Shown here: positions 30,712 through 60,372 of the stretch, one piece after another
Layout: every line of letters begins with the position of its first letter
Position numbering within the stretch: the stretch's first letter is position 1
Assembly: GCF_026210795.1 (NCBI RefSeq)
Contig: NC_089429.1
Location: forward strand, 3,968,001 to 4,032,000
Source: Rhizophagus irregularis
Taxonomy: Eukaryota
DNA: 64,000 nt
Direction of reading: 5' to 3'
The notes under the pieces: generated by a model
Databases searched by the model: none
What the model saw: only the letters and a program-made list of their open reading frames with translations
What the model was told of the DNA's origin: nothing
Translations under genes and position numbers: made by a program

Positions 30712-31009
30712 AGGACCCCAGATATCTAATATAAAGGTTATAATGGACTTTTGGCCAAAAACACCACTTTTTGCTGAAACTCAAAAAATCGTTTTTTGTA
30801 AATATCTCAGCATCCAGTAATTCAATTTTAATGAACTATTTTTTATTTTGTAGCCCTCATTTAGCTCTACAATTTAAAAAAATGTTCATCAAAATTGGAC
30901 CACTGGATGCCGAGATATTTACAAAAAACGATTTTTTGAAATTCCTGAAAAATGGGCCAATCTGCCGAAAGTGTGACTTATGACCTGTTTTGGAGATATC
31001 CGGGGTCCT
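30712..31009. mobile_element. MITE with AGGA termini and 8-bp TSD
   Basis: AGGACCCCAGATATCT ... AGATATCCGGGGTCCT; TSD ATATAAAC at 30704-30711 and 31010-31017. Confidence 0.85.
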
Positions 31010-31279
31010 ATATAAACTTGATATCAATAAAGCATATATAAATCATTAAAAAAAAAAAAAGTATATGTTACTATTACCTTTTTTTCCTCAAAAACTGACT
31101 TTGCTGAAACTTGGAGTTTACAATCGATATTGATTAGATATCGCAATGATATCATTACGATATCATTACGATATTTTGATAAAAAATAGATTTGACATCG
31201 TTAAGTTAGTCGTAACTGTATTTATTTGACATTGATTAGTTTGATATCTCTGTGATATCGCTGTGATCATTATGCGATG

Positions 31280-31930
31280 TAAATATTATCACGTAACCAC
31301 ATCGTAGTGATGTCGTATTAACATTGAATTAATATTACAACAATATTTGACATTTATTTGATATCGTAACCATGTCGTATTAACGTAGTGATATCATATT
31401 AACATCGAATAATATTCAAAAATATTTTATCTATTTGATATCGTAACCACATCGTAGTGATATCGTATTAATATTGAATTAATATTACAAAATATTTGAC
31501 ATTTTATTTGATATCATAATCACATCGTAGTGATATCATATTAACATCGAATTAATATTGCAAAAATATTTTACATCTATTTGATATCGTAACCACATCG
31601 TAGTGATGTCGTATTAATATTGAATTAATATTACAAAATATTTGACATTTTATTTGATATCGTAATCACATCGTAGTGATATCATATTAATATCGAATTA
31701 ATATTGCAAAAATATTTTACACCTATTTGATATCGTAACCACATCGTAGTGATGTCGTATTTACATTGAATTAATATTACAAAATATTTGACATTTTATT
31801 AACTACATCATAATAATATCATATTAATATCGAATTAATATTACAAAAAATGTTTTACATTTATTTAATATCATAACTACATCGTAATGATATTATATTA
31901 ACACCGAATTAACATCACAAAAATATTTTT
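31280..31930. repeat. 73-bp tandem repeat array with alternating (dimeric) variants
   Basis: CACATCGTAGTGAT at 31448, 31521, 31594, 31667 and 31740 (73-bp period), with degenerate copies on either side. Confidence 0.9.
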
Positions 31931-33628: not shown

Positions 33629-34111
33629 TAGTGCTCCAAAACGAGTCGAGTTGACTCGTGAGTTGGTCAAGTTGAGTCGAGTCGAGTTGAAAATTACAAT
33701 CAAATCGAATCGATTCGAGTCGAGTTAATAATTTAATAAAATCGAGTCGAGTCGAGTTAAGCCGAATTAAGCCAAATTTATGGAATTTCCTTTTTTGGAA
33801 ATTATGTTACACAAAATCCGAGACGAAATTTTTTTGAAAATTACAAAAATGGAATTTTGTGGAACGGCTATCGCCAAAAAAGGAAATGATCGGCATAGCC
33901 GAATAAAATCACGTGATTTAATTCGACTCGGTTTGACGGGCCAACTCGACTCGAATCAAGTCGAGTTTATATTTTTATAATTTTAACTCGACTCGACTCA
34001 ACTCGATTTAACTCGAGTCAAATCGAGTTTACATATAACTCGACTCGATTTAACTTGAGTCAAATCGAGTTTACATATAACTCGACTCGACTCGACTCGT
34101 TCGGAGCTCTA
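33629..34111. mobile_element. hAT-like MITE inserted in the transposase last exon
   Basis: TAGTGCTCCAAAACGAGTCGAGT ... ACTCGACTCGTTCGGAGCTCTA; TSD GATGCAAA/AATGCAAA; removal rejoins WYKFA-SYMIEEE. Confidence 0.85.
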
Positions 34112-36317
34112 AATGCAAATTTGTACCAACTAATTGAAGAGTTTATAAGTGCCGCCTCAAACTTCATATCCACATAAGATAAAAACAATTCAGTTTTAAA
34201 ATTATGTAAAGTTAAAAGAAGTTTATCACGTTCCTGCTTTGACATTCTTTTTTTTAATGAAATATTGGAAATAAAGTTTACTGGAGATATAACTAAATTA
34301 AAAGATTAGTAAATATAAATATCAAACATGTACTACTATATGCAATAAAATATTTACTTTTTGTATTATCATCATCATCTTGAACTTGTTCAGTTGCTTC
34401 AGTTGAATATTTATCTTCTGTAACATACCAATTTAAAAATAATTGTCCAAAATTTGAATTTGTAAATCCAGTACAAGATCTATTAAATCTTGGATCAATA
34501 CCACCATCTGCTAAATGTCGAATTGCAAATAAAGTATTGTAACGCTTTAATAAATCCAAATCTATATTTTTGAATACGATGGACCATTTCTTTTATACCA
34601 ACTTGGGTATTAATAAGTGTTCCAAAGGTTTTAGCATGCATCAAAAGATGCATATTAACGTGTATATTTGGTAAATTAACAAAATTTACAAAAACCTATA
34701 AAAAGTAAAATATTGTTAATTATTTGAAATTATTCCATATTTCAATATCAAATTTGTAACTATACCTTTGGAAGGATTGAAAACTCTTCTTCAAGACATT
34801 GTTGCAATTTCTCATAGCTATCTGATGTAAATTTCTCGTTAAAAACCGCTTTCATAGTTTTTGCAACATGTATCCAACAAGATATAATAATTTTTGGAAC
34901 TGAACTAACTCGAAATGCATCAATTCTTTGTTGAATCATGGCTGTTTCATTACGGTTGATACTTGATTCTTTTAAAAACTGGTTTAACAAAAATGGCATA
35001 ATCATAGCTAATCTAAGTAAATCTGACATCATAAAACTATTGTAGTGAGTAATCGGATTTGGTAAGCGAGACCATCTTTTTGGGATTTCAAAATTTTTCC
35101 AAATTTCGATAAAATTATCTTCTTCTTTTCGTGAAAATAATTCACAAGTTAATTTTAGTAGCCGCCCAATCTTTCCTGCAGTCGCATGATAAACATCCTG
35201 CAGCGTCTGTAAATGTCTTTCCCTTTTTAATTTATCTAAAATACTAGGTAATGATCGTATTTTAAGATTTCTTCGTCTGTAATATGATGATAACGTAATG
35301 TTGTTACGATATCCTGATTGTGAGCACTCAATGATTCTTTAGTAGTTTTACAAGTACAACAACCCTTATTTGCATTATGTCTAAATTTATTTTTTAAACA
35401 ATTTTAATAGTTGTCATAAAATTATATTATTATATTATTAACTAAATTGAAAAAATACCTTAATACTCCTGTCAAATCGTTACCTTGAGGTAAATCTGCC
35501 GTAACAACGCCTAAACCAGCAATTATCCATGCATCTTGTTCTTGCACCTTTCCTTTCTCTAATTCCTTCATTTCTGAAATGAATGGTATCATAAATTCGT
35601 CAAATTTTCCTCCAAATGGAATAAACCCAATAACAAAATGGTTCTTTATTAGCTTTCTTTGATGTGCTGGCATATTTCCAAACTGTACATAAGCATCACC
35701 TAGAGAATGATATACATTTCTAAATGTACCAAAATCATCATAATAAAGATCTAAAAACAGCTTATAGATTGGCATAGATGATGATGGTGGATTTCTGATA
35801 GAAATGTAATCAGATGGATGTAGGTATGAAAGCTTTACATTACAAACGTGCCAACGGTTATTACATTTATAAATTATTTCACTAATCTGCAATGAACCAT
35901 CAGGAATATTTTGATGTTGAAACATCATCAATATAGTTACTTTTTCTAAAATTTGAGAAGTCATTATAATTAAAAATGGTTCGTCTTGTAACCATACTTC
36001 ACTGGTAATAGAACAACGTTGTCTTGGTAACCTTTTTAAATTTCTGGGTAAATCTCTATATTCCAAAATTTTTTGAATTTATAACTGATAATATCCATCA
36101 TCATTTTTAAAATTGATCTTAATCTTCCAAGTTTTTTTTGACCATTATCATCATGATAGTAAACAAAATCACCAGATCGGTACAATACTATTTATTAAAA
36201 ATAACTTTAATAAATATTATCAATGATAATAAATTATAATTGTATCAAAGTGTATTATTTTATAACCTTCTGATATTAATATTTCGTGTTGTCCAAAAAG
36301 TGGGGATTCCCTCCATA

Positions 36318-38902
36318 AATTTCCATGCCAAAATTCTGATTTTTCTTCAGAATTAATGCCGGGTTTAAAATACATATGCTTTATTAGCATCGGATTATTA
36401 AGAACAGGCCATATAATTTCACTGATTGAGAGTTGATACGAAAGTTTTGATCCTCGTGAGGTTGATGGAGTTTTTTTTTAGTGAAATTTTAATAGACTTT
36501 GTTATTATTGGTAGGAGAGGAAGACGTTTTCTCCATGATTGGAATCTTCGGATATTTTTACCATATGGGTAGGTTCAAATTGAGAATTGTGAATGATATC
36601 GACAAGATCTTCATATGCTTTTGTAGAAACATTATGCTTCTGAAGCCAGCAAAATAATGCCGTAGTTGTATAATTATTAAAGTACAGTGCAAACTCACTA
36701 TTGCAGAACGGTATCTTGTCTTCATCTAACGCTTCAACAATTTGATCTATTTCTTCTTCTTCATTATTACGTTCCTCTTCATCGTTATTACGTTCCTCTT
36801 CCACTTGATTATTATTATCATCATTATTACCTTCCTCTTCCTCCTCTTCGTCATTGTTTTCATTATTATCTTCCTCCTCTTCCTCCTCTTCATAATTGTA
36901 TTCGTTATCACTTTCTTCTTCCTCTTCAGTATCAGATGAATTGACATTATCTTGCGAAAATATCATCTCATCATTGTAGTCTTGAGGATTAATTGATCCA
37001 TATGCATTATCGTCATCATTAATGTCTTGAAAACTTAAATCATCTTTATGATCATACTGAAAGTCCATATCATCGTTATCATTATCAGGTGAACGTATAG
37101 GCGAACGAATTGCAACTCTCTCGTCAGAATCTGTTGTCTCATTAGGTTTGCTGTAAGAAAACCGATTTCGAAAATTTCCATGCCAAAATTCTGATTTTTC
37201 TTCAGAATTAATGCCGGGTCTAAAATACATATGCTTTATTAGCATCGGATTATTAAGAACACGCCATATAATTTCACTGATTGAGAGTTGATATGAAAGT
37301 TTTGATCCTCGTGAGGTTGATAAAGTTTTTTTTTAGTGAAATTTTAATAGACTTTGTTATTATTGGTAGGAGAGGAAGACGTTTTCTCCATGATTGGAAT
37401 CTTCGGATATTTTTTACCACATGGGTAGGTTCAAATTGAGAATTGTGAATGATATCGACAAGATCTTCATATGCTTTCGTAGAAACATTATGCTTCTGAA
37501 GCCAGCAAAATAATGCCGTAGTTGTATAATTATTAAAGTACAGTGCAAACTCACTATTGCAGAACGGTATCTTGTCTTCATCTAACGCTTCAACAATTTG
37601 ATCTATTTCTTCTTCTTCATTATTACGTTCCTCTTCATTGTTATTACGTTCCTCTTCCACTTGATTATTATTATCATCATTATTACCTTCCTCCTCCTCC
37701 TTTTCGTCATTGTTTTAATTATTATCTTCCTCCTCTTCCTTTTCTTCATAATTGTATTCGTTATCACTTTCTGCTTCCTCTTCAGTATCAGATGAATTGA
37801 CATTATCTTGCGAAAATATCATCTCATCATTGTAGTCTTGAGGATTAATTGATCCATATGCATTATCGTCATCATTAATGTCTTGAAAACTTAAATCATC
37901 TTTATGATCATACTGAAAGTCCATATCATCGTTATCATTATCAGGTGAACGTACAGGTGAACGAATTGCAACTCTCTCGTCAGAATCTGTTGTCTCATTA
38001 GGTTTGCTGTAAGAAAACCGATTTCGAAAATTTCCATGCCAAAATTCTGATTTTTCTTCAGAATTAATGTCAGGTCTAAAATACATATGCTTTATTAGCA
38101 TCGGATTATTAAGAACACGCCATATAATTTCACTGATTGAGAGTTGATACGAAAGTTTTGATCCTCGTGAGGTTGATGGAGTTTTTTTTGGTGAAATTTT
38201 AATAGACTTTGTTATTATTGGTAGGAGAGGAAGACGTTTTCTCCATGATTGGAATCTTCGGATATTTTTTACCACATGGGTAGGTTCAAATTGAGAATTG
38301 TGAATGATATCGACAAGATCTTCATATGCTTTCGTAGAAACATTATGCTTCTGAAGCCAGCAAAATAATGCCGTAGTTGTATAATTATTAAAGTACGGTG
38401 CAAACTCACTATTGCAGAACGGTATCTTGTCTTCATCTAACGCTTCAATGATTTGATCTATTTCTTCCTCTTCATTATTACGTTCCTCTTCATCGTTATT
38501 ACATTCCTCTTCATCGTTATTACGTTCCTCTTCCACTTGATTATTATTATCATCATTGTTACCTTCCTCCTCCTCCTCTTCGTCATTGTTTTCATTATTA
38601 TCTTCCTCCTCTTCCTCCTCTTCATAATTATATTCGTTATCACTTTCTTCTTCCTCTTCAGTATCAGATGAATTGACATTATCTTGCGAAAATATCATCT
38701 CATCATTGTAGTCTTGAGGATTAATTGATCCATATGCATTATCGTCATCATTAATGTCTTGAAAACTTAAATCATCTTTATGATCATACTGAAAGTCCAT
38801 ATCATCGTTATCATTATCAGGTGAACGTACAGGCGAACGAATTGCAACTCTCTCGTCAGAATCTGTTGTCCCATTAGGTTTGCTGTAAGAAAACCGATTT
38901 CG
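36318..38902. repeat. Three tandem near-identical copies of an approximately 855-bp coding segment
   Basis: ACCGATTTCG at 37161, 38017 and 38893; the translated block repeats in ORFs 36505, 37274 and 37715. Confidence 0.95.
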
Positions 38903-42310: not shown

Positions 42311-43550
42311 ATGACGACTAAACGTAAATCACCTAATAAATCGTCTGATGATAATCAAGAAATGGAAGTTGAAGGAGGTATGTAGATATAACTCTTTTGT
42401 AAATTTATAGTAAGTTTTGTTATATAGTTATATGTAAAAAGAATAATTAATAAATACCAAAAATATGTATAATAGGATCAAAACGAAAACAAATTACGAA
42501 AAAAAGAAGAGATATTAACATTGAGAAAGCCAATCAGTTGATGAAAAAAAGTAAAAACCATAGTAATAAAGAAGCTGCCGAATCTGCCGATAAAGAAGTT
42601 ATAGTAGTAAATGAAAAAAGAAGTAATGATAATGATGATGATGATGATGATGATGATGCGAGTAAGACGGAAGATCATAAAAAACCCAAAGTATTTCAAT
42701 CAAAGTCAAATTTAGAAATAGTTGCTTGGCTCGTCGATTATCCGGAAATTTTAAGATTGGCACTAGAAATGAACAATACGGATGTTGCTATCTCATCATC
42801 CAGTAAAATTATGGACGTAAGTATTAAATTAACATGATAATATTTATTTGTCTAAATCTTTTAAATAATGTATTTTTAATATTTTAGGATAAAATTTGTC
42901 TATGAGACGAAAGTGTCAAGTGTCTTTTTTACGTGCGAGAAGTCCACGTGGTGAAGTTTTTGATGAGTTGATAACAAAAATTTTCAAAATAAAAATACAT
43001 TCGAACGAAGCTAAAAGCTACCTCAAAAAAACCCGAAAATTTTTCATCGATTTCAGAAATAAGTTTAACCAAATTATTTTAACTTCTGTAGAAGAATTTA
43101 AAGAAATAAGAAAAAACAGGTATTTATTTAATTGTTTCCTAGCTAACCAAATAGTGCTGTTTGTATTAATTATTAATTTAATTATAGAGCATCTACTGGA
43201 AGTTTATCTCAAAAGGAACTTATAGATTACGTTGATGAAGAATTTGTTCAAAAAATTTTAAGCCGACAGCTTGTAGTTGTTAATATTTCAGAATTAACAA
43301 GAAATGAAGGGTTCGATATCTTGGTTGATTTCGTAAGAGAAACCTTTAAGGTTTCGTAGAACAGAAAAAATTTGTCCGCCGTTAAAGAATTAGATAATAT
43401 AACCAAAGAATTAACGATCCCTTCTAGGAGTGGAAATAAGATCGTTGATTCTTTATCGGTAAGTTATTTTATTTATACTGATACTTCATATCCTTTAATC
43501 ATAGTTATTAATAATAATATTAAATTATACATAGTTATAAATCTTAGCAA
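42311..43550 (+). pseudogene. Multi-exon gene of unknown function (possible transposon accessory gene)
   Basis: ATG at 42311, short GT-AG introns linking ORF pieces 42538, 42896 and 43372; in-frame stops present. Confidence 0.45.
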
Positions 43551-44360
43551 ACGCTCTAATTTTTTTATAAAATTATGCATTTTATAACGATATTACATTG
43601 AATAAATTTAGTAAATTTTACAAGTAAATGATAATATGAAACATCATTATTCTAAACATTATACCATAATGTCAAGTGATAATAATATAAAATAAAATGG
43701 ATGTATAAAACTATAAAATGTTTGTCTAAGATATAACACTTTCAAGTTTAAAAAGTAATTATTGTTTTGTTAAAAATGGAATGGTTATTATGTGACATTT
43801 CTTCTTTAATGTATACGGCCTAAATATCTCTATATATTTGACGTTATTATACAGATCAAAAAGAATACATTTACGTAACATTTGTGTAAAGTAAGAACTT
43901 TAAAGTTTAAGCCAATTCTGACTGGTAATTTACAAAATAACAAACACATTTCTTAAAAAAATTCTGAATCAGAATACTTTTCCGGTTTTCATTTTCGATT
44001 CTGCAAAAAATTGAAAAGTTCAGGTGATAATTCAAGAAATATCCACCTATAAAAGACTAAACAATTATCAGGTTGATCAAGTTTGTGTAATACCAAATTT
44101 AATAAATTGTCTGATTAAATAATCGCGTATATTAAATGATCGCGTATATTATAAGGCTATTAATTCCTAAAAAGTCAATTTAACCACTATTTTATTTAAG
44201 ACTATTTATTTTGTACATTTTTTTTTTTTAAAAAAAAAACTTTCTTTCTGAAAGTAGAGTCTGTTGTCGGGCTGGTAGTGTGTCTCGCTACGCTCAACCC
44301 ACCTCGGCCAGGGGCCTCGCAGTACCTACATCTCCCCTCCGTGGGGTAGGAATCCCCTAT

Positions 44361-44603
44361 ATCTGTCACTATCTGTCATTAACATCTGTCATATAATAAT
44401 ATACTAAAAAAGAATGAAATAAGGGAAAAGAGAGGAAAATACGATAGAATCAGAGGGGTATGACAGATATGACGGATATGACAGATGTTTCAGAAAAATC
44501 GGGAGAGGATACTCCCAGAAAAAAGTTTTGATTTTACCCCCCCAGATCTGTCATTCTGTCATAGATCTGTCATATGATCAGGATTCAGTCTATTCATCTG
44601 TCG
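44361..44603. repeat. Iteron-like ATCTGTCA cluster (putative replication origin)
   Basis: ATCTGTCA or variants at 44361, 44371, 44384, 44546, 44554, 44565 and 44596; inverted TGAC(A/G)GAT at 44461, 44470 and 44479. Confidence 0.8.
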
Positions 44604-44720
44604 GAAGCAGTGAGATAGCAAACCGAGTAAACAGGTAGGTTAATAGCCCCTAGAAGGTCTGTAAAGCCACAGAGAGATAACCGGGTAGAAGCGCGGATCT
44701 TTGGAAAAAATACATTCGGC

Positions 44721-44730
44721 AATTGAAGAT
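44721..44730 (+). promoter_or_regulatory. AATTGAAGAT upstream conserved motif (first of 7 in the element)
   Basis: The same or a variant motif lies upstream of each + strand element gene from 44773 to 60373. Confidence 0.65.
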
Positions 44731-44772
44731 TAGGTAACTATAAATTAGTACTCGATTTAATAGAACGAAAAA

Positions 44773-47344
44773 ATGACCACTCAAGCTCAAGTTATCCCCA
44801 AATTCGGTGAACAAACGAAAGCCTTTAGTATCAATGAGCTTAAACGGCTTATTGTCGCTGCAAAGAGTATGAGTGACCTCGATCAAGCCAAGAGGTATCT
44901 TTGCAGTTATTTCATTCCCTGTGCAGATCCTCATGGGGTTTTCTGGTGGGACCCGGATAGTAAAAGTTTGAAACACGTTATTGACAAAAATATTGGTAAA
45001 CTTATCCGTCCAATTATGAAGGTATTCTACACACAACCTGAACAAGGACCCTCTCAAAAGACCGAGTTCAACATCTACAAATGGTTTATGGTCGAGAATA
45101 CCGATGTATGTAATGCAACCTGTGATCCCCATAAACAGCGAATCTTCAGATCCTTAACCGGCCAACTCTATCTAAATATCTTCCCGGGATTCCTCCACGT
45201 CTTGCGTCCGATATCCACCTTTGAGTCTACAATTCACCTCGCGGTTAAATTTATCTTCTCTCACATTCAGGATATCTGGTGTTCGGGTGATTGGAATCTC
45301 ACTGAGTATATCATCAAGTGGTTGGCCGGTGTATCTGCTGGAAGGAAGATGTACTCGATCCTTTACCTGAAATCTGGACAGGGTTGGGGCAAAGGCATTA
45401 TAACAGATTTCATTCAGCGCAGCGTCCTAGGCACTCAACTCGTTTATAAGACCAGCGATCCTCAGACGATTCGTGGAAGTTTCAATGGGCAATTACAGGG
45501 TAAGATTCTTCTTCTTCTCGAGGAAATGCCCACGGAAAAAAGCCAGTGGAATAATCTGTATCGCTCTTTAAAGGATAAGGTAACGAGTGACATAATGGAA
45601 ATCCATGAAAAATACAAGACACCAACACATTATAAAAACTTTATGTCTACTATCGTCCTAACCAACGAAAATGCTCTCAGAGTGGATAATGATGATAGGC
45701 GCACAGTGTTCTTGGATGCGTCACCATCCCGCAAGGGAGACCTCAACTACTTCAAAAAACTCGGTGACGCTATGAAATACCCAGGCGCCAGTGAGGCATT
45801 CTATGCTTATTTGAGAGCCATTGCGAATACTTACTCAGACTTCAATGGAAATCCGCCACCCATGACAACATCCAAACAGGAACATATCATCTCAACTCTT
45901 CCACCGCTATTCCAATTTATAAAGGACACATACCTCATAGTGAAAAATTATATGACCGACCTACCTGTTCAAGAATTTTATAGGGTATATACTTCATATT
46001 GCGAAACTCGTGGCATTACACCCTTATCAAAGATAAACGCTTCTAGAATCCTATCAAATGAGTTGAGTATAAATAGTAATCGGACTTATATAAATAAAAA
46101 GTTAACCCGAGTATATAGCATATCCAGGGAGGATCTTTACAATAAATACCTCGGCAAAAACTGGATCCACGAAACAGACGAGATAGATATAGAAGGAATT
46201 GATATAGAGACTTCTAAGAAACCCGCATCAGACCCCAAAGCCTTGGAAAAGTTCTTGGCAAATATATATAATCCAGCTAACAATCCACAAGACGTACAAG
46301 AGAAACCCGCTGAGAAAAAACCCGCTGAGAAAAAACCCGAACCCGCCGAGGAAAAACCCGCTGAGAAAAAACCCGCTGAGAAAAAACCCGCTGAGAAAAA
46401 ACCCGAACCCGCCGAGGAAAAACCCGCATCTGTAATTCGCAAGACTCCTCCACCGCTTCCACCCAAGCATGACCACTTAAAAGAACGTCCACAAGAGTTA
46501 AGGGAAGAACAACCGGATCCCGATGAAGATACTAGTGAGTCAAACACCGATGAACCTATAGATAACTTCTCAGACTGTTATCTATCTGACGAGGAACCCA
46601 ACCAAGAAGAACCTATCCCCGAGCCAGATAACTACGACGTTTTAGATGACTTGCTATCTGACTCAGATTTTACAACTGTAAACCCAGCTCCTGAACAACA
46701 ACCCGAGTATCCCGCAGAATCTTCTGCATCTGTCACTAAGCCTGACCCAGAACCGGCTTCTGAAGAGCAATTTATCCCAGAACCCGACACAGAACCAGAA
46801 GTTGACCGGGATCCTGAACCAAAGGGAAGGCACTCGAGCGCACTGGGCTTGGCAAGAAAGACACCGATGGGATCGCAAACCATGGGTTAAAAATTTAAAG
46901 GACCAGGTCTTCAATGATCTCTACAATACAGGTAAGGAATTATGGGCCAAGTACCAAGATGCGTCAGACGAATATGACTGGGAAATACTCGCGTTTGAAA
47001 TAGAGGAATGTCCCACAACGCGTATTGAGGACGAGTACCAGTACTACCTTATGGAGGTAGTAGACCGCTTCAAGGACTGGATTGAATATAATGGATACTT
47101 ACCTAAAATACCTAGCCGTAAAGAACTCGCAGATTTAATAAGAATATACAAGGAGAATCGTAATGCCGAGATTATTCCCACCCCCTCTGGTTATGAAACT
47201 ATGAGGGCAGATAAGGGAAAAGCGCGAGAGATCCCTGAGGAACGTCCAAAAACTGATATGGAACGTGAATGGGAGGCCGCCAATGGAATCATCGATGACT
47301 GGGACGAAGAGGATACTGAGGGCGCTATCAACGACATATTGTAA
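44773..47344 (+). CDS. SF3/D5-like helicase with winged helix and acidic Pro-rich tail (frameshift near 46822)
   Basis: Walker A SGQGWGKG, Walker B LLLLEE, motif C VLTN, DDRR; wHTH-like region 45913-46170; ORF 46802-47344 continues it after PEPK. Confidence 0.85.
46300..46427 (+). repeat. Coding minisatellite (KPAEK / KPEPAEE)
   Basis: 15-bp units AAACCCGCTGAGAAA and 21-bp variants in tandem. Confidence 0.9.
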
Positions 47345-47429
47345 GCGCTATTTGAGATTATTTCTTTTTTTTTTCGTATATATATAGAAAGATATTATTT
47401 ATAGTTGAAGACAAATCATATACATAAAA

Positions 47430-49284
47430 ATGCAATACTCAAGAATTGCCCGCACTTTACCAACACGACCTGACATCAAGGAACTTCAGTATTCCGGTGC
47501 TCGCTTTTCCAGAGGAGCTATCGCCAGACTCGGTCAGACTCTCCAGACGCGATTTCCAGATAGAAAGTTCCAGATCCCTACTTCCCTATGAAAACTGGAA
47601 ACCCGGTGGATGGACATCAGGAAACCAACCAGCCAGCCTCTTTTCACTATTAGACCATTATGATGAAGCACAACTACCGGATGACGCAGACCCTGATTAT
47701 TTTGAACGATTCATAATTTATGCAAGAGATAGTCCACCGGCCGCAGGAGGATGCAATGGGGAGCTAAATGATTGCCTGTATGAATGCCTAAAAAATATTT
47801 ACGGCACATTCTCTAAAATGCCAAAGTCAATCGAAAAGCCCGAGTATATCAAAAAGGCATTAGGTCTCAATCGCGATGCTCCCATCCCAGTTTCATGCAT
47901 GGACAAGGTTGAACAACTCGCAGGAAGTCTCGCAATTAATATTGTGGGGGACATTACCCGAATCTCTAAGAGTAAGTCCGATAGACGTGCGACTCTCATC
48001 CTGTCAGAAGGCCATTACTCCCTCGCGTTAAATCCCGGAAGACTCCACTCCAGTAAATTAGATAAAAAGCGTAATTTACCCATTGTATACCATGAAGATG
48101 GGACCAATAATGTAGTCACAATATACAACGGCAAAACGGTTAAGTCTTGCACAATTGCGCAGTTTCAAAAAACTAAGAATTCCAAAAGTTCTTTCATCCC
48201 CGTCAAGAAAAACCGTAAGACTGGAGTATATGAAACTCTTGAAGAAGCATATCAGAGAATCCACGAGGAGCGGAATTCCTTTCTACAGGAGACAAAGAAG
48301 TTCGGTTTAGGAATCGACTTATCATACCATAACTGGTCTTACAAAAGAACGGCTCTCTGGTTATTCGAACGATTAAGTGTAGGGATTCCAGCCAATGATC
48401 CTCTTGACCCGATAGAAGCAGAGTGGTTAAGTGATGCAATGATGGGAGGATTAATCTGGGCAGATAACGAGTGGAAGGGCTATGGAAGACAGTACGATGC
48501 AACAAGTTTATACCCGAGTATTCAACAATCGAATGCAAACTTTCCAATCAGACGGGGTAAATTCCAGACACTTAATGACTTTGTTGACCACAGGGGTTAT
48601 GCCTTGTATGGATTATTCCGTGCCAAGGTAAGTGGGAATAATATTCTCTTCCGACAGAATAAAAGGGGAATCTATACATTCATCGACTTACAACGAGCAA
48701 AAAAACTTGGTCTCAATATACAGTTAATACAGGATGGGAAGCCAAATGCATTGATATACGATAGAGAAGCGAGAATCCCTGGAACTGTAATATTCGGTGA
48801 GTATGTACACTTCCTCTTCAAAATTAAAAACCAGGGTGGCGTAGCTGGCCGCGTGGCAAAGCGAGTCCTCAACACATTATGGGGAGCATTATGCCAGAGG
48901 AAGCGTAATTACAAGACACTCACCGCAGATCAAACAGACCCGTTTACATTTCCAGAGGGCCATACACTCGACTCTATCATACCAGTAGGATCTGACCAGT
49001 GGCGATTCCAGTTCACAAACCCGGGTAATCCCTTCAAAGGTGAGTATCCCAGGATCGCCCCATTCTTATTAGCACGTGGTCGCAAAATCACATCTGAGGC
49101 AATTCAACCATACAAGGATAAAGTACGACGTATCCATACGGATGGATTTATTTTAGAAGAGCAGCCAGATAGCCCCGCGCTTTTCACTTGTTCAGAGAAT
49201 GCAGATACGACTCTAAAGACTTTCAAGTTTGAAACCGCGGGATACTGCCATGTGAAAAATGCGAACAAGGTTATCTGGACATGA
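47430..49284 (+). CDS. Protein-primed family B DNA polymerase-like protein with putative vOTU domain (frameshift near 47577)
   Basis: MMGG, motif A YDATSLYPS, motif B KRVLNTLWG, motif C IHTDGF; ATG at 47430 (MQYSRIAR...) joins LLPYENW after one extra base. Confidence 0.8.
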
Positions 49285-49377
49285 TTGCTAAGAACTGGTA
49301 GGTTTATTTTTTACTGACATATCGTGATGGCATAATTGAATAAACCTATGGGATATGTAATCTTACGAGATACCCAA

Positions 49378-49872
49378 ATGCAAAACACCGACGGATTAGG
49401 TAGACAAGACGATGAAAGTTTCCACGCGTGGGCTAAGCGCATTCAGAATGCTGTGCAATATTATGAGACTTGTAGTAGAATAGGTTTTCATAGGCGGCTA
49501 CCTTATCCAAGGTCTCGTCAAGCTGTATATGCTTATATTGTGCACATTAGGAGAATAGTATCACGACTACCAAATAGGTGGTACTGTACCTACTGTAAAT
49601 CTTTTATTGATCGCGGATGGGGAGCTGACGCTTTCATGGATCAAGCGGTGCGACTACATTTATATAGTTGCCCAAAGCATTTTAATTTCGACTATTATAC
49701 TCATCATGCTGAAATGATCCAGAATGCCTTTAGGAGATATATAGAAAGAAGGAACAATAAAGCGGCTAGGATAATCCAGAAAGTCGCTATCCCCTGGTTA
49801 TATAGACCAGGCTCTCCATTGATGCAAAAGGCCGAGCGACGCTTCTACTGTCTTGCAGTATCCCAAGTGTAA
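49378..49872 (+). CDS. Zinc-finger-like and IQ-motif protein
   Basis: CTYC...H...C; IQNAFRRYIERR and AARIIQK; ATG 49378 lies downstream of AATTGAA at 49334. Confidence 0.6.
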   Translation: MQNTDGLGRQDDESFHAWAKRIQNAVQYYETCSRIGFHRRLPYPRSRQAVYAYIVHIRRIVSRLPNRWYCTYCKSFIDRGWGADAFMDQAVRLHLYSCPKHFNFDYYTHHAEMIQNAFRRYIERRNNKAARIIQKVAIPWLYRPGSPLMQKAERRFYCLAVSQV

Positions 49873-49954
49873 ACCCTGAGGTTCATATTTATTTTTTCTC
49901 ATTCGAATGAACAGGTAACTGAAGATTTATATTTTTTACAAAGTACAAAGAATC

Positions 49955-50425
49955 ATGTCAACATATACCGAATTCGCAAGCATTGTTAACAGCACTGACA
50001 GCACTAGTGATGAGGTTATTTACGAGGCATCGCGCATTCAGCCTAGTGTTATCACTGACGAAACTGTCCCCAAGATTATCCGCGCATTAAAAGATACTAT
50101 AGTAGTCGCATTAGTATCTGGGTTTAGCAAAACCAGTTACCTCGTCCAGGACCACGTGAAGTATATCAAGCGAATCCAAACGGCAAATTCTCCTGTATCA
50201 TATGTGAAGTTCGTGGCCAGAAAACTCTTCCCAGATAATGCGGCATATACTGCTAAAATAGCAAAAATCCGCGAATCATACAAGAATAAACAAGCTCTCC
50301 TAGATAAGCTTGAGGCCCTCTTCGAATTGTATTATAATGCGACTAAGGACTCATCAACCGGTCCCCCAAAGCGAGCTATTACTAAAAACGAGGCTGAGAA
50401 AACCTTAACAGAACTTCTTGCATAA
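49955..50425 (+). CDS. Hypothetical helical protein (156 aa)
   Basis: Intact ORF with upstream AACTGAAGAT and downstream TATTTTTT. Confidence 0.7.
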   Translation: MSTYTEFASIVNSTDSTSDEVIYEASRIQPSVITDETVPKIIRALKDTIVVALVSGFSKTSYLVQDHVKYIKRIQTANSPVSYVKFVARKLFPDNAAYTAKIAKIRESYKNKQALLDKLEALFELYYNATKDSSTGPPKRAITKNEAEKTLTELLA

Positions 50426-50538
50426 GCGGCTCCCTGTGGTCCTACGATCCCTAGTACGAATTTAGTCTATATTTTTTATCCATGTGTAATAGGCATACAG
50501 TAATTGAAGATAGACTATAGTATAAGTAACATAACATC

Positions 50539-50965
50539 ATGTTGGACCGATTACCAGTAGAAATAGTCGAACGCATTGTCGCAAAAGATCCCGGATACTG
50601 ACCTTATTGCAGCGAGTAAGGTAGATAGAGTGTGGTGGCGAGGAAGTTCGTCGAGAGGCGTATAAGAGGTGGAAAAATTATGCCACTACGATCGGGGATG
50701 TGTACTGTGAAATCGAGCTCTCGGAAAGCATTATATAAGAGGGAAATTGACTGGATAACGTTTGAAGATGTAAACGACCTCTATAAAAGATGGATAAACC
50801 AGCTGCACGAGGGGATCAGGCTTTATATTATGGAGAAAATGCTTAGGAATGGGATGGTCGTGGACCCCCCAAGAGAGAAACCATAGAGTATGCATTAAGT
50901 GAACAAAGATGGGGAGGCGATCCTTGGGGACTGGGAGTGGTATGAATGGACTCAACAGGAGTAAG
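50539..50965 (+). pseudogene. F-box-like protein, multiply frameshifted
   Basis: Reconstructed MLDRLPVEIVERIVAKIPDTDLIAASKVDRVWW; motif at 50502; downstream frames continue into ORF 50632. Confidence 0.6.
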
Positions 50966-51485
50966 CATTTTGTACTTGACTTTCGTAGGAATTACCCTGC
51001 AGAGTCATATTTTTTAGATCCGGCCGGCATTACCGCGTAATCCCGAATTACCGAAAAAGGAAATTTATGTTACACAAGGTTCCAAACGCATTCTTACCAA
51101 ATCGATTTTTTGTGGAACGGGTATCGCACAAAAAGGAAATGATCTACGTACCGCATGAAATCACGTGACACTCTACACATTTGTTCAGGGTATCACGTGA
51201 CATGAACTCCGTTCACATTTTCTGTAATATAATCCATAGTTTTCCATGAATGCTTTTTAGGCCAATAATCCAATAACTTATTCATCAGGTATCCTCGTGT
51301 TTTGCGACAAGGACTGATGACCATGTAACCTCATCATCAGGCATCCTCGCATTTTTTGACAAGGACTGATAAGGAATGATGATAGATCTCTTACCGCTGA
51401 TCTATTGACCAAAAATTTTCGGAAAGAAAATTTTATATCTTCGTACTAACAACTCTTATATTTTACCCAACTCATACCTTCTAAC

Positions 51486-53600
51486 ATGTCTAGAAACCTT
51501 GCTAGAAGAGGTGGCGGCAGCTATAACCCTAACAGTAATAAGGCTGCTCGTCAAGAAAAGAAAATAATAAAAAACAACTCTCTGATAACTCTGGTTCCGA
51601 TAGCGATAATAATTCCCAAAAACGTTCCCGTATACTTACAAAAGACTCCATGGATGAAGACTATGAAGATTTCGTTGCCGACGCGCCGGCTGACGGTGGT
51701 TTAGTTGGTTCAACTTCGACCGCTATTCCTCAACAAAATAATTCCCGCAGCACTGCCCAAGAAAATACTCAAGCTTCTACCCCGAAAAATTCTGCTGCGC
51801 CTACTGCGCCTGGCCAAGACGCGTCTTCTGGAGCTAACGCGTCTATTCATACACCTCGAAACAAAGAAAATAACCCATCCCCTAACGCGTCCCCTAATAT
51901 GGACGTTAATGATGGTACATCGCCCTGATCAGGCTGTTGATCCCTCCCCTACCATTACCATTAATCGTCAAGATTTCCTGGCTGCGGCTGCGCCCAACTC
52001 CGCTCCCCCAAACTCTTGAGAAACTTAAAACCAATAAGGCAATTATAGAAGCCGTTAACAACTTATTTTTAGAAACGTATGAATCATATACCGGTCGTGC
52101 ACGTATGACTGGCTCGGGGACGCTAAACGTCTTATCATACATTTTCATACTGCGGAAGCTCGTGACTTGTGTGTTGGTAGCACACATTCCGACTTTCCGG
52201 ACCTTCAATTCCACCTGTACGATCCCAAACAGCTCCCGGTCCGATGAAGACCTCCGTGCAATTCAAGTAACAGATATCCCGTTCTTCATTACTAAACCGC
52301 AACTCCAATCCTATTTCAAGAAGTTTGGCAACCTCCTTACCATCCATCTTTACTCGAGGAAAGGTGCTAAGATGCAACAAGCCCGCATTGTCTATGATCA
52401 TGCCGATGCCATTTCCCGTTTCACTACTCAATGGGCAGTTTACTGCTTTTCTACCCTGCTTGCGTGTTACCCCGTGCCACTACTCCTTGGATCAAAAAGC
52501 CGCTCGTAGAGCGTTCGTGTTGTTCTCTGGACTTCCCGCTAATACTAAAGATATTCATCTCGCTCCTCTGGTTAAAGAACATGGAGCAAAAGCAATTAAC
52601 ATTCCCTTTCCCCTGAATTCTTATAAACCTAAACCTTGGGCTTATGTCACCTTCAACTCGCAGGAAACAATGGATGCCGCTATGGAGCAAACTATTGGTT
52701 TTCAAGGTCGTACTCTTCGGTGGGGTTCATCCAATGATTCGAAAGCTCTTTGCCATCGTTGTGGTAAACTTGGTTGTGCTCCTACCTCTTGCCCGCTTAA
52801 TCAACGCCGTGGTCGCTCACGTACACGTGACCCTGTGGCTGCTCTTAAAGAACGTTTCAATATTGGCCAAAAGCCCGTCCAATAGAACGCACCGCGCAAT
52901 AATTCACGTTCTCGTTCTCGATCTAAATCTCGGGATCGTTCTGCTTCTGCTCACCGTTCTAATTCCAATTCCAATAGTTCTAATACTAATGGTAATAACA
53001 ATAATAATAACAAACCCCCCTCTTCTGGTTCGCCTGCCCATGGACGTGCACCTTCGATTACCCGAAAAGGCAAAGATAGATCTGTTTCTTTTTCGTCCAA
53101 TGCTCGTGCTCCGCTCTCTGATTCGAATTCTTCTAGTGCGCCTAGAGGCCGCTCTTAACATTCTTAATGTTCTAAAGAACCTTCAACAAGATGTTGCTCG
53201 TGTGGAATCCCGCATTTCCTCCCTTGAACTAAACAACCAACGGCTTTCTGCTATAGAAGGTCATTTAGGCATTAGTCCTCCCTCTGTACCTATCATTAAT
53301 TCTGAACCTGATCAAATGGAAGAAGATCCTCCCGAAATCACTGGCACTTTAATCCAACATCCCAATGCTCCCTCATCATCTTCTGGTTCTATGAAACCCC
53401 CTTCCCCTAAATCTATTTCCAACAAGGCTCCATAGCTCGCTTGCTACTTCTAACCCTTCCCAGCAAGACGAATTGAACTCAGTTATTCAAGATCAAAAGG
53501 CGATTAAAGATACTTTACAATCGCTCACTGGTTCCATTCAAGGTTTCATTGCTTCTCTTGGTGGTTCACCCTCCGATCGAGCTTCAGCTCCTTCGCAATA
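51486..53600 (+). pseudogene. LINE ORF1 (RRM-like domains + zinc knuckle), frameshifted
   Basis: IQVTDIPF..LQSYFKKFG, WAYVTFNS, CHRCGKLGCAPTSC, RS-rich and coiled-coil tail spread over several frames. Confidence 0.75.
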
Positions 53601-53649
53601 ACTGACTTCTCACCTTTTTTTCCCCGTACTTTATTATCATTGTGCTCTA

Positions 53650-56600
53650 ATGTCAGACAATTTTAATTATGATACATTTGTTCGAAACCCACCCAACCCC
53701 GTAGATACTTATATCTTTTCTGAACATGAATCTTTATTTACTACCCCAAATTCTTCCCCTATCCCTAATTCCTTTAATATTTCATCTTTTAATGTTAATG
53801 GTCTTCGCCATAATAGTCAAATTAAATTTGAACAAATCTCAAACTTTTTTAATCTTAAACATATTACCTTTGGTGGTATCGTTGATACCCATTTAACCCC
53901 TAAACAAATTCATTTCTTATCTAAACGCCTCCCTAATTATACTGTCTTTTCATCTGATATAGATAAAACCAAACAGGTCAATTCTACTGGTGGCGTCTCC
54001 CTTTTCATTGAAAAATCCCTTGCTTCCCATGTACAAGATTTTGTTTCACATTCCTCACGAATTTTATCTGTTGACCTTTATTTTAAAGGCAACGTTAAAT
54101 TTCGTATTTTTGTGATCTATATTCCCCCTATTTCTGATTCTAAATTACGATCAGAAACTATTGATCTTCTTTTACAACTTTTGGTGCAAACTAAACAACA
54201 AAAATTTTATCATGCCATTTGTGGTGATTTTAATATGCACCTAGATACCTATTACCCTATTTACTTTAATCGCCCTGCTACCGCTTCGCAACGATCATAT
54301 CGTTTGCTACATCATCTTTTATCTCATGGCTATGAAGAAACTATTCCTGTTAACGCTTCTGACTCCTTAGGCACCTTTCACCGTGATGACCAAGTTACTC
54401 GTATAGATTATGTTTGGTCTTGCCCAATGCTAAAAGGCTTCGCTCTCACTTCTTATATCTTTGACGCCCAAGACACCTGCTCTTCGGACCACAATCCTAT
54501 CATCACGTATTTTGATGATTCACTCTTGGTTGCGTCTATCAAGGTTGCTCGTGCTAAACAACTTCAACGACAGACTCGTCGCATTTTTAAATTTGATTCC
54601 GTCACTGCTCAGCAATGGGAATCCTTTTCTACTTGTACTGACTCCTTATGCAACGTTTCTCCTTCCACCTTTTCAACATGGCACATCAATCAACAATGTG
54701 AATATTTACATTCCCGTATCGTGAAAGCTGCTAATGCCTCTCTTCCGTCTGTCAGCGGTTGGCAACCAATTTACACCTACGATGCCTAAGGATTTGGAAG
54801 CTTTAACTCAACATTATCGTTTCCTCAGCCGTCTTCTGCATTCGATACGTTTATTGCGAAAATATCCTTCCACATATTATAATAGATATGAACGTACTTG
54901 GTCCGCTCATTTCATTCGACTTCAAAAGATTCTTCATCTTTATAAGAAGGTTATTCCTTCTCCCCCTATTTTACCTACTTCTTTATCCACATGTAGGCAA
55001 GACGATTTTAAATGTTTATTGGAATCTTTAAAGTCTATCTCCAATACCCTCCATGGTTTCCTTCTTCTCAAAGAAAAAGACTTTCAGGACTCTTCCATTC
55101 GTGCCAAATTGGACGATCGGGACAACAATTTTGAAACTGATATTTCTTCCTTTATTAATTCTGCTCTTTCAAGAACTCGACGCCGTATCACTTTGGATCG
55201 TGTCTTTATTGATTGCCCTACGCATCCCAAACTTTTAACGGACCCACTCGACATTGATAACGCTGTTATCAACCATTTCCAAAATTCCGTACCTATCAAA
55301 TCGACTCCTCCTATTAACATTTCTGCTTTACCGGAAAGATGGTCTTCCGCTTATCGCCCTATGGACGATGTGGATTCCTCCATTTATAATTCTTTATTGG
55401 ATCCTCCTACTCTGGACGAATGGTTGTCTACGGTCTCTTCTATGCCTAATGACAAAGCTCCTGGTCCCTCTATGATCACTTATGAGATGCTTAAGCATCT
55501 GGGCCCTAACACTTCCGCTTTGATCTTAATCCTGGTCCAATCATGTCTTCGTACTGCAGATATTCCTGATTTATGGCGTCAAGCTATGGTTTTCCCTATC
55601 CCTAAACCTCACGAATGGAAATGTCAACTCAAGAACACAAGACCTATTACTTTACTTGAAGTAATTAGGAAATCTTTGGTTAAACTTTTTTACAACCGTC
55701 TCGCTTCCATTTTGGCTTCAAATGAAGTGCTCAGAGGAGGAAACTTCGCTGGTCTGCCTGGTGGTTCTTGTCGCGACCCTATTGTCGTTTTTGAATCTAT
55801 TATCCATGATGCTCATGTCAACAAATCGCCGCTTTGGATCCTTTCGCAAGATATTTCGAAGGCTTTCGACTCGGTTGATCTCAAGATGTTGCGTTTCGCT
55901 CTTGAACGCATTAAACTTCCTGCTTCTGCTACAAAATTTATTTTATCCCTTTTCATGAATCGCTCCAATCGCGTTTTTACTGCTCATGGAACTACTCCTT
56001 CTTACCGTGTTCGAATTGGTATAGATCAAGGCGAAGTTATCTCTCCCTTACTTTGGGTTATATATATAGACCCTTTGTTAACTGTTCTTAAGAATGAAAT
56101 GATGGATCCGTATACGCTTCATGCTCCTTTATTATCTAATCCCTTGGCTATGACCAATTCTGATGGATTACGTATCAATAACTTGGTCTTTATGGATGAT
56201 TCCACTTTAATTTCATCATCCAAATCCGGAATGGAATCGATGCTCTCTATTACGGAAGAATTTTATCAAATTAATAATACTTCCGCTAATCACAACAAAT
56301 ATGTTTTAATTACTAATTCGTTGCCTTCCACTTCAGTTCCTTCACCTTCTCCTGTCGTGTTTGACTTACATTTATCTGGATTGAACAAAGTTCCTTCCAT
56401 TTCTATTGTGCCCATCTCCATGAATAGCTCTTTCCGCTTCCTGGGCGTCTGGTTCAATGTCGCTGGTTCTCGCGATTTTGTTAAAAAGCAAGTTGCTAGA
56501 GAATGTAACTCTTTCGCTGCTACCGTTCGTCCTGCCAAATTATCTGCTAAACAAGTTGTCTATTTGCACAACACCGTCCTTATCCCGAAATTGGAATATC

Positions 56601-59272
56601 GCATGCAAGTCACTCACCTCTCCGAATCTGAATGTGCCTCGGCAACCAGTAGTATTCGTTCCATGGTTAAACATAAGGCCAATTTTTCACGTGTACTCCC
56701 AGATTCTATTTTGTTTTTATCTCAAGGCTTGGGATTGATTAATTTATTTTTTCACCAATCACAAACACATTTAACTAATTTATTTTTATTAGCTAATTCT
56801 TCTTCTTCTTTTATGAAAAATTTATTTTTCTATAGATTACGTTTAATTCAATTTTCTTTTTTGATTCTTATTTCTCCGTTGTTAGTTAAAGATTGGACTA
56901 TATGGTCTAAACTTTTGCTTTTAAGCAGGATTATATCGCTTGCACTATTGCTCTCCTGACTGCCACTCCTTTCAAGTTGTCGTATTCTCCACTTTCAGCT
57001 TTGCCTAACCTTACTATATCCGATGGTCATACGCCTTTATTTGAAATAATGACCCCAAAGATTTTTATCTCTTACTTCCGACGTCTAAGAAGTCTGCAAC
57101 TCTATTACCTATCTCAATTTATCACGCCTCAAGGAACCCATATGATCACTTGGAATGTTTATCTTTCCAGCTTATCAAGTAGGAAAGGTCATCGAGTCCT
57201 CCCGCATAAGTGGTTCAATGACATTCATCAAAATGTCACCGTTCCAAATTCCAATTCTCTACTCTTGGATCAATTCTCTTCCGAAGCCGTTCCTTCAGGC
57301 GTTGATTTGGTTCCTGCCTTTGGTTCCTCTAGAAAATCCATGAAATGGATCGTGTCTTTGGACGAAGATGGTTCCCCCTTTATTTGGAAAACAGCTCGGC
57401 AAACAACAATATTCTTGCAAGATTGTCCATTGGACTTCTGATTGTGTGACTCGACCTAATGATGTTATCACGCTCACTCCTTGTCCTGGTTGTTCTAAAC
57501 ATATACCGGTTACCCATACTAAAAGTAATCCTACAGATGTTACTCCTTTATGTATCATCCCAAAACTTTCTCCTCTTAGATCTTTAATTCTCCCGACAAC
57601 GCAGGAGCGTATTAGACATGATACCTCTACTATTACTTCTCCTTTCACTTGGGCGGACCTTGATGAAACTGTAAGATCATATTATGGTCGTTTGGACACT
57701 CAACCTAATTTTTCACAAGTAGAGATGGTTACTCCTCTCCTACTCTTTCTTCTTCCTCTTTGGGCTCGGCTGCTTCTCTCGCTTTTGCTGCCTCACCGTT
57801 AGCGACTCCTCCTAATAACCATTATTGTTTTTATACTGATGGTTCTTTAATTAACCTTGGCACTCCTGATGTTTCTATGGGTTGGTCTTGGGTTCAAGTC
57901 CTCGATGGCGCTGGTTTTTTCCAATCTATCGCTGCTTACGCTCATGGAATTATTCGTAACTGGCCTTCCTCTACGAAGGCTGAAATTGCCGCTATACATG
58001 CTGCTCTTACAGTCACTCCTCCCTTCTCAACGGTCGACTATTTATACTGACTCTCAATCTGCCATAGATGGTCTTCGTCTATGTGCTACCTTTTCTTATT
58101 CCAATAGTAGGCTCTATTACAAGACCACCAATTTTGAACTTTGGGCTATTATTGAACGTCTCATTTTCTCTAAATCTTTATCTGTCACGGCTGTTAAAGT
58201 GAAAGGTCACTCTGGTAATTTCTACAATGACTACGCGGACTCATTGGCCAATTCTGCGCATACTTCCTCTTCAGCAGTTCTTCTTTCTGATTTGGATCAA
58301 GTATCTCCTCACGATTTCTTATTAAAATATGATGATATTTTATGCGAATCCAACCCACGACGCCTATTCAAGCAATATTCGCAAATGCTGTGGATGCATA
58401 GACTAACGCGTTTATCACGTTTTAATTTCACCATTGATTTATCTTTTACTTCAGATTTCGTGATTGATTGGGATCTTACCTGGTTTTCGCTCAATTCTGA
58501 ACCTCAACATGATGCCTCTTTTACTCGAGCTCATGCTTCCTCTCATCGCACCTTCAAATTCAAACTCTTTTTGGAAGATTTGCCTACTTTGGAACATCTT
58601 AAAAGAATTCGCCCGGACTTGTATATCGACATTTTATCATGTCGTTCATGTCTCGACTCCAAGGAAGATTTCATGCACCTTTTTATGTGCAAATGTAGAC
58701 GAATCGCTATGGAACAGATTCTCCTCTCCTACCAACATCATTTTATCACCAAACTTCAAGAAGCTGGTGATCTCGTTAAGAAAGATCCCTCTTTACTTAT
58801 TAACAAATTTAAATCTCTTCCTTGTTGGTCCTTTTCTTCTTCAAATTGGACTTCATATAGCCTTGTCCGTGGCTGCCTTCCGAAATCCTTTGTTGAAATT
58901 TTTGAAGAACTTTCTATCCCACGTAATTCTGCGATGAAGGTTATCTCTGCCATCCACAATCACTTTATCCAAAAGATCAGAAAACGAATTTGGCTACCGC
59001 GTTCCTATGACAAATCTAAATGGGAAAATGCGATGAACATCACTCAAAAACTTAAACTTTCTCGGCCTTCAAATTTGCCAAAGTCTACGTACTTACCTTT
59101 CTCAACTTTACCTCCTCCGACCCTTTCCGACGCCGCACGTGACTCCGACGTTGATTATTTAAAGAACTCGATGAAATATGGTTTGCCTTGGTTTAATCAC
59201 TATTCGGGTTTTATGGGTCGTCTAACGGTGCAACTTACTAACAGCTTTAGCAGGGTGGTGTGTCGATTTTAA
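53650..59272 (+). pseudogene. LINE ORF2 (APE, RT, RNase H, Zn finger), few frameshifts
   Basis: FNVNGL, CGDFN, RIDY, SDH; KAFDSV, GIDQGEVISP, FMDD, RFLG; YTDGS, YTDSQ, KGHSG; CRSC...H..C. Confidence 0.92.
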
Positions 59273-59626
59273 TAATGGGCGCATTGTTCGTTGGTTTGCT
59301 TGCATAGTTGCTTCTTCTTAGGTTGGAATATATCTAGGCGGGGGATCAGGATAGTTTTAGTGTTATGCGATTTTTTCCTTTCTGAATTAATTTTATAGCT
59401 TTATTACTGTTTTGGAGACTATATAGTTTTATTTTTAGTTAATTTTATTTTTCTTTTTTGTACTTTGAAAATTTTATTTTATTTTTTTGTAAGTTCGTTA
59501 AATAATTTTAATAAAGATAAAGGCTACTATGCCATATTTGCCTTGACAAGGACTGATGACGATGTCACTTGGTTATTGTAAATTGAAGATAACAATTAGG
59601 TATGTAGACACGTACAGAAAAAAGAC

Positions 59627-60211
59627 ATGTCATACCCTTATATAACTAATCCTATAACCGGACGTCCAATCCGTGTTGGTGGAGATACCTTTAATCGAAT
59701 AGTTATGGAATCCCATGATTATATCGATGGAAGGCTTGTCCGTAGACAAACCGTACCGCCTCCACCCCAGGAACAACCTGTATATTTAAATACAGATACA
59801 GGACGCTATATTCAACACGGTACTAGAACGTATCATAGACTGGTTGAGAGTGACTACGAGGTAGTTGAGGACTACTACCTTGTTCATTCTGAAGAGGAGG
59901 AGCTTATAGATGAAATCATCAATGAAACACGCTATAATGAGGAAAATCTTGATGGCCAGCGGTTAACTTTCAATAATATACAACAAATCAGAGCCGCTAT
60001 TCAAGCTGACCAAGATGAATATGATGATTTTATCTTACAGCAGAATACGACTAACGGGACACCTTCCTCCGGTCCTTCCGGTCATCCACGAACTTTGGAG
60101 GACCATGCCCCGAGACTTGCAGAGCTTAATATTGAGTTGTGTAGGGAATGTCTCATGCCTGTAAGCCCAAGTGACTTAACGGACAAGTTGTGCAAGGACT
60201 GCGCTTCCTAA
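59627..60211 (+). CDS. Protein with two 2-cysteine-adaptor-like repeats and a C-terminal C4 zinc ribbon
   Basis: NPITGRPIRVGGDTFNRI and NTDTGRYIQHGTRTYHRL; CREC...CKDC; AATTGAAGAT at 59581. Confidence 0.65.
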   Translation: MSYPYITNPITGRPIRVGGDTFNRIVMESHDYIDGRLVRRQTVPPPPQEQPVYLNTDTGRYIQHGTRTYHRLVESDYEVVEDYYLVHSEEEELIDEIINETRYNEENLDGQRLTFNNIQQIRAAIQADQDEYDDFILQQNTTNGTPSSGPSGHPRTLEDHAPRLAELNIELCRECLMPVSPSDLTDKLCKDCAS

Positions 60212-60372
60212 TGGTGAGTCCTCCGGTCCTCTGGTCTTCCGGTCTTTCCAACGGTTGATCCCTTAATGCCAGTTATTTTTTTTTTATACAAATGACAGGT
60301 ATTTAAAGATAACAATATATAAAAAAGATTGTGAAGGATACTAAGTGAGCGAATAATCAAAGAAAGATAGCC

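Follow-up and report, generated by a model that had tools for sequence, protein, structure and literature searches.

Origins built from opposed short repeats around an AT-rich stretch, adjoining the gene of an SF3 helicase that carries a winged helix at its C terminus, are described for SaPIs (Rep-ori) and for phage P4 (alpha-ori) in the accessible text of PMC9371898, PMC7581432 and PMC4889955. SaPI origins contain 6-12 short iterons and an AT-rich centre, with at least two iterons per side in opposed orientation, and are read by the winged helix of Rep; the Reps bind their cognate origins, the discrimination of Rep1 being modest (PMC9371898). P4 alpha binds its origin by means of its winged helix at the C terminus (PMC4889955), and the winged helix of ORF904 from pRN1 is reported to give no specific footprint (PMC2777425). 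The Mavirus-type pairing consists of an exonuclease-less protein-primed DNA polymerase B (pPolB) and a stand-alone S3H, and the helicase has been proposed to unwind the DNA (PMC11071308).

Regarding the host, Mavericks are reported to be expanded in Glomerales (PMC11952901), and A32 ATPases and D5-like helicases have been noted in Rhizophagus (10.64898/2026.06.19.733378; PMC11296320). The nearest published idea to the array described here is the end-module hypothesis for PLVs, according to which inverted repeats serve as origins for adjacent primase-helicases (PMC11296320). The accessible text of the Rhizophagus Maverick and PLV end-module papers names no repeat word, array layout or wing polymorphism. 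The available parts of PMC11071308 and PMC8547959 mention no iteron array of mavirus or of EMALEs, and none is described for a virophage, Polinton or mavirus in the accessible text of the literature searched (including PMC3671162). The word "iteron" is absent from 10.64898/2026.10.13.758929, and the supplement of PMC11075540 contains no TE sequences.

The array analyzed here is part of a Polinton-like element that occurs in many copies in Rhizophagus-type fungi. It lies in the window, by which we mean the whole stretch of 64,000 nucleotides to which all coordinates refer. Among 86 homologues of the helicase every species-named one is from Rhizophagus, with many copies per genome. The element combines a protein-primed DNA polymerase B with an A32/FtsK-type packaging ATPase, as do Polintons/Mavericks, and a short pPolB with a stand-alone S3H, as in the Mavirus type. 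The D5-like SF3 helicase gene occupies 44773-46890 on the plus strand (DUF5906 at aa 199-310, E 1e-17; Pox_D5, E 2.6e-4; helicase region of NrS-1, E 8e-26), and its C-terminal tail carries on in another frame at 46802-47344. It is followed by a short, Mavirus-like DNA polymerase B of the protein-primed type at 47430-49284 (+; DNA_pol_B_2), which is frameshifted near its 5' end. Judging from its length (approximately 620 aa) and homology the polymerase is probably exonuclease-less, and a conserved Cys and His motif could represent the vOTU domain of the Mavirus type. Further downstream are a stand-alone protein with a paralogous winged helix at 60373-60924 (+; hhalign 95%, E 3.8e-8 against the winged-helix alignment of the helicase) and an A32-like packaging ATPase at 61302-62126 (-; Pox_A32, E 4.6e-11). 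The motif AATTGAAGAT occurs at 44721-44730 (+), 50502 and 59581, with a variant at 47405 and a further occurrence near position 100 of the metagenome locus L004. It stands about 25-50 nt 5' of element genes (about 45 nt in the case of the helicase ATG) and is likely an element-specific promoter element.

The copy in the window shows signs of decay: compared to homologues, frameshifts affect the tail of the helicase and the start of the polymerase, and the element is interrupted by a LINE (RRM, endonuclease, reverse transcriptase, RNase H) at approximately 51000-59560, near both ends of which the motif caaggactgat recurs. No primase family was detected in the helicase or its neighbours in the window, and phage primase profiles match the helicase part only. 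An rve integrase was not found among the ORFs scanned in 44773-64000, the element running past the window. Its window part likewise contains no double jelly-roll capsid and no virophage capsid, penton or protease gene; for a Glomus Polinton, too, no double jelly-roll capsid was detected according to the available text of PMC7805220. A gag-like protein at 62844-63998 (+), open at the window end, has homologues of approximately 800 aa with a retropepsin domain. Several gag-like and helicase homologues sit on equally long contigs (14971, 35433 and 146583), and the gag-like protein may be a resident gene of the Polinton-like element. Elsewhere in the window, the region 36300-38900 contains a tandem duplication of about 880 bp with 95% identity, located within an acidic minus-strand ORF.

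The closest free relatives we found are virophage-like contigs. Neither the window helicase nor the alignment of its close relatives (A1) retrieved a locus in viral contigs, and A1 retrieved none in prokaryote genomes; a third helicase alignment (A3), narrower than a broad one whose divergence precluded searching (A2), led to two loci. The virophage contig L104/L108 encodes a capsid of the Sputnik type and an integrase of the rve-chromo type, along with a helicase and a polymerase that are 33% and 32% identical, respectively, to those of the window (over 513 aa for the polymerase of L104), and all six loci obtained with the polymerase alignment possess such a helicase together with an rve integrase. 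Like the Mavirus-type module, the window element has the helicase in first place close to its end and a polymerase of approximately 620 aa, both proteins being about one third identical to those of L104/L108. It differs from a Mavirus-type virophage in that no virophage capsid or rve integrase was found in its window part and that its ATPase is A32-like. A terminal inverted repeat of 118 bp (88% identity) at 297-414 and 13736-13840 of L108 includes a CCACCGTC array directly upstream of the helicase. This array is in one orientation, and that of the contig L109 is small and mixed. Two of the seven virophage-like contigs end just upstream of the helicase; an array is present in two of the remaining five and absent from three.

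The left terminus of the element probably lies near 44253, a position that is supported though not proven. The GC content is 0.60 from 44253 onwards versus 0.20 in 44100-44252, and three contigs align rightwards only from 44267, with 62-761 unrelated letters on their left. As 44150-44248 was masked as a repeat in the contig comparison, contigs are not traceable over the junction, and the exact end of the GC-rich terminal stretch (44253-44360) is taken from the GC step and these contig alignments. The stretch starts with AGTAG; Polinton ends begin with AG. No unusual fold was found in it (z 0.11), and its likeness to the end of L108 is within chance (22 of 500 shuffles). A second copy of the element end is not present inside the window, the right end lying beyond it. 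The AT-rich left neighbour at approximately 43380-44229 is multicopy in four out of four runs and joins the element at a T12-A10 run.

The array follows directly on the terminal stretch. A word search recovered the layout that the original prediction had claimed from the letters, namely three direct copies, an A-rich spacer, three inverted copies and four more direct copies within about 350 bp of the left end. Block 1 (44361-44393, +) consists of three exact direct copies of ATCTGTCA at 44361, 44371 and 44384. The A-rich spacer, a candidate unwinding region, occupies 44394-44449 (23% GC). Block 2 (44461-44493, -) holds three inverted copies, exact at 44461 and 44479 and with one mismatch at 44470, after which comes a single CTGAAACA-type word (44486-44493). 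Block 3 (44546-44603, +) contains four direct copies, two of them exact (44546, 44565) and two with one mismatch (44554, 44596). Seven out of ten ATCTGTCA-type copies are therefore exact. Within the blocks the copies are nearly tandem, spaced 8-13 nt apart, and the blocks are separated by 67-77 nt. The helicase ATG at 44773 follows 170 bp downstream of the last repeat block.

This accumulation is not expected by chance. Exact matches to ATCTGTCA occur 11 times in the 64-kb window versus 1.94 expected, a count reached in none of 100 shuffles, and the commonest GC-containing 7-mer in 44253-44772 occurs eight times compared to at most four times in 300 dinucleotide shuffles. No RNA family was recognized, the best E of 0.11 falling well short of the family threshold, and a search among phages gave no match at the DNA level. 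The array is neither an independent MITE nor absent from other copies, either of which would have spoken against the origin reading: no inverted repeat bounds the array except the repeats themselves, and contigs tile it into the upstream region of the helicase, continuing to 44719. Short words occurring in both orientations are also densely clustered elsewhere in the window, at 1-350, 30900-31800 and 33700-34300 (ACACATA, GATATCA, AACTCGA); these clusters are probably the ends of other transposons.

Contigs from six of 23 listed runs were compared with the region. In four runs the contigs diverge from the window precisely where the repeat blocks lie, and different repeated words stand there. 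At block 1, TCCTCCACA occurs twice in contigs of three runs, and CTGCCACA in forward orientation was likewise seen in three runs (loose ends at 44350 and 44399). Block 2 is replaced by a reversed CTGCCACA-type word in one run and by three copies of a CTGAAACA-type word in one contig (loose ends at 44455 and 44475), and block 3 by three copies of TCYGTTAC in one contig (loose end at 44551). At least four other repeat words thus occupy the same slots in sister copies. A loose TCYxxxAYA frame accommodates every word, and one CTGAAACA-type word is retained in the window as well. The spacer and the outer flanks are common to the copies carrying other words; the spacer has the highest summed contig depth in four out of four runs, depths not being read as copy numbers, and yields 79-bp matches from divergent contigs. 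As the alternative words were taken from the 24 listed out of 155 loose ends on short contigs, with 9-30 letters each, they represent fragments rather than whole arrays. Five metagenome loci reach at most 188 bp upstream of the helicase and join no full alternative array to its wing on one molecule, and one of them (L001) begins with a single TCTGTAAC word where the last repeat would be, which is too little to use.

These observations bear on the idea that the array is a neutral outcome of slippage and of local inversions within a repeat that is decaying, the alternative words being unrelated repeats with common flanks. Nearly tandem copies within the blocks, a repeat-rich host genome, the other mixed-orientation clusters of the window and the frameshifted and interrupted state of the copy would all fit such an origin. 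Yet the three blocks, which lie 67-77 nt from one another and alternate in orientation, are filled by one word, entire blocks differ jointly in their word from copy to copy with the spacer retained, and slippage does not predict the association with phage helicases reported in the following. We therefore consider a neutral history of the repeats highly improbable.

A further hint towards a function of the array arises from viral contigs. IMG/VR was scanned for three tandem copies of the core word TCTGTCA, yielding 98 stretches, 80 of them with flanks. Mixed-orientation loci, defined by at least two core copies per orientation, accounted for 18 of the 80. A DUF5906 or VapE helicase according to Pfam lies within 3 kb of 14 out of 18 mixed loci, three of the scanned ORFs having been added by hand on the basis of a Walker A motif, compared to three out of 62 other loci. 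A uniform HMM search over all ORFs found an SF3 helicase at 12 of the 18 mixed loci versus 3 of the 62 others (p 1e-7), and after merging duplicates the proportions are 12/16 and 3/52 (p 9e-8). With a scrambled control word a helicase was present at none of three mixed loci and at one of 77 others. For the alternative words of the sister copies the link to helicases is weak or absent among the phage matches listed: CTGCCAC has a helicase at one of six mixed loci and CTGAAAC at none of one. The phage arrays likewise consist of opposed blocks flanking an AT-rich stretch; in 12 out of 14 cases they lie downstream of the helicase gene, in contrast to the upstream position in the window. As judged by eye, the wings of the phage helicases beside TCTGTCA arrays have no evident likeness to the wing of the window helicase, and a recognition code common to both was not found in the same inspection. 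Opposed repeat arrays of origin-like appearance were also seen at L114 (178-300), near position 3000 of L135 and L139, and in L017 and L039, beside ORFs without a match to a helicase family. Their neighbours could possibly belong to unrecognised initiator families.

The array might alternatively comprise subterminal sites to which the integration machinery binds, or else a host factor, the variation of the helicase wing being unrelated. It lies less than 350 bp from the probable end, and the integrase of the element is outside the window or was not found among its ORFs. Subterminal repeats in both orientations are a feature of cut-and-paste transposons (CACTA/hAT), the ends of adenoviruses bind host factors, and TGACAG is what we take to be a word of TALE-homeodomain proteins. 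Against this, five different words are too many for one host factor, retroviral-type integrases recognise only the last bases of an end, and in phages this very word and layout are found beside SF3 helicases far from element ends. Such a terminal or host-factor function appears quite unlikely to us.

The helicase itself provides a candidate reader of the repeats. In agreement with the original prediction, which had placed a helicase with a C-terminal winged helix next to the array, Pfam and the structure model concur in an SF3 helicase whose winged-helix domain spans aa 378-461 (45904-46155, +; Pox_D5, AlphaFold pLDDT 88.6). The best structural matches of the winged-helix model are RFX5 (Z 7.0, rmsd 3.1, 72 aligned residues) and RFX1 (Z 6.5), followed by a Z of 5.4 for the comparison with the P4 origin-binding domain, all of these values being middling. 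A Foldseek search with the 480-aa helicase model returned no match at E<=0.001. In RFX, helix 3 and the wing make the DNA contacts (PMC2777425).

The wing is hypervariable in close relatives of the window helicase. The wing hairpin, a beta hairpin in both models, covers aa 436-445 (46078-46107, +), and DNA contigs show a loose end and a joint at 46079, inside the wing. Of 91 close proteins 57 possess an intact domain, and 45 of these are at least 85% identical to the window protein outside the wing. As isoforms and re-assemblies are included, these 45 relatives are not independent. Their mean pairwise identity is 0.39 in the 10-residue wing versus 0.91 in the other 110 residues, and helix 3 is almost invariant. 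The wings fall into six discrete types with 12, 9, 8, 6, 5 and 5 members. The types were placed on a backbone tree calculated by a quick method with the wing excluded (52 rows, labelled with the six types plus one unassigned row). They require 18 changes compared to a minimum of six and a shuffle mean of 31.6, so they are still clustered, and one type occurs to either side of a branch whose support is 100. This scatter over the tree suggests that wings have been exchanged between helicase backbones.

The array word and the helicase wing are thus both polymorphic among sister copies, and a co-variation of the two, as had been proposed for checking the original prediction, is likely; the octamer itself is not fixed across the family, and the evidence for the pairing is parallel polymorphism. 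The stand-alone winged-helix protein at 60373-60924 behaves differently. Its wing has an identity of 0.86 versus 0.72 for the rest of the protein (25 of 34 sequences) and is nearly invariant even in homologues that are approximately 50% identical elsewhere; a further homologue is encoded in L002 (3973-4575, -). The varying word matches the varying wing of the helicase and not the conserved one of the paralogue; the latter is a candidate for a regulator or for a protein that binds an invariant site.

This comparison is relevant for another explanation, in which the repeats are bound by the stand-alone protein or act as operators of the helicase promoter instead of forming an origin. The element does contain the paralogous winged helix, and the array ends 120 bp before the promoter-like motif. 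Yeo et al. (2002) are said to have found the P4 initiator regulated via a second winged-helix protein, which would be a precedent, and iterons often serve as autoregulatory sites as well. The near-invariant wing of the paralogue, however, stands against a varying repeat word, the AT-rich centre between opposed blocks is origin-like, and autoregulation by the helicase would itself require binding of the helicase. Binding by the stand-alone protein or a purely regulatory role is in our view unlikely.

We therefore propose, with a probability of roughly 0.7, that the array is the iteron origin of a Polinton-like element and the predicted target of the winged helix of its own SF3 helicase, word and wing likely changing together into several specificity types. 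Winged helices of the helicase would bind the oppositely pointing blocks, and its subunits could assemble around the A-rich spacer, open it and unwind the terminal DNA. The protein-primed and presumably exonuclease-less polymerase, which would need help with strand separation, may then copy from the end. If each wing type reads one word, a copy would be replicated mainly by a helicase of its own type, in analogy to SaPIs with their cognate pairs of Rep and origin. Such a diversification might be driven by selection favouring private specificity where many copies, often defective ones, reside together, which is speculation on our part.

The original prediction had argued by analogy with the origin of phage P4. 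The part concerning the origin has indirect support from the neighbouring SF3 helicase, whose winged helix is C-terminal, from a word and layout that mark SF3 helicases in phages, and from the polymorphism of word and wing among sister copies. The element is nevertheless not a P4-type primase-helicase replicon, as no primase domain was detected and a short protein-primed polymerase is present. The array is origin-like as in P4 and SaPIs, yet the lack of a detected primase in the window, the upstream position and the eukaryotic host place the element outside these replicons. In SaPIs the origin is located immediately downstream of rep, and neither SaPIs nor P4 share the position near an element end or the protein-primed polymerase partner. 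Many specificity types would, moreover, coexist in one species.

The broader reading is that a self-synthesising eukaryotic element has been split into at least six replication-specificity groups by paired exchange of wing and word, resulting in a code within one fungal genome that resembles plasmid incompatibility; here we see the arguments as evenly balanced. On the start of replication in Mavirus-type virophages and in Polintons with a stand-alone SF3 helicase, the accessible text goes as far as proposing that the helicase unwinds DNA and that terminal repeats could be origins; the array offers a concrete candidate of 250 bp. The candidate binder is 100 residues long, and the natural alleles of word and wing provide built-in controls. 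If the broader reading is true, the array would be the first defined origin for a replicon with a Mavirus-type helicase and a protein-primed polymerase, and nature would have supplied, with this family, a library of D5-type winged helices for reading their recognition code. Should the pairing hold, it would point to competition between copies of one element, in which exploitation by defective copies is avoided, and might explain part of the expansion of Mavericks in Glomerales.
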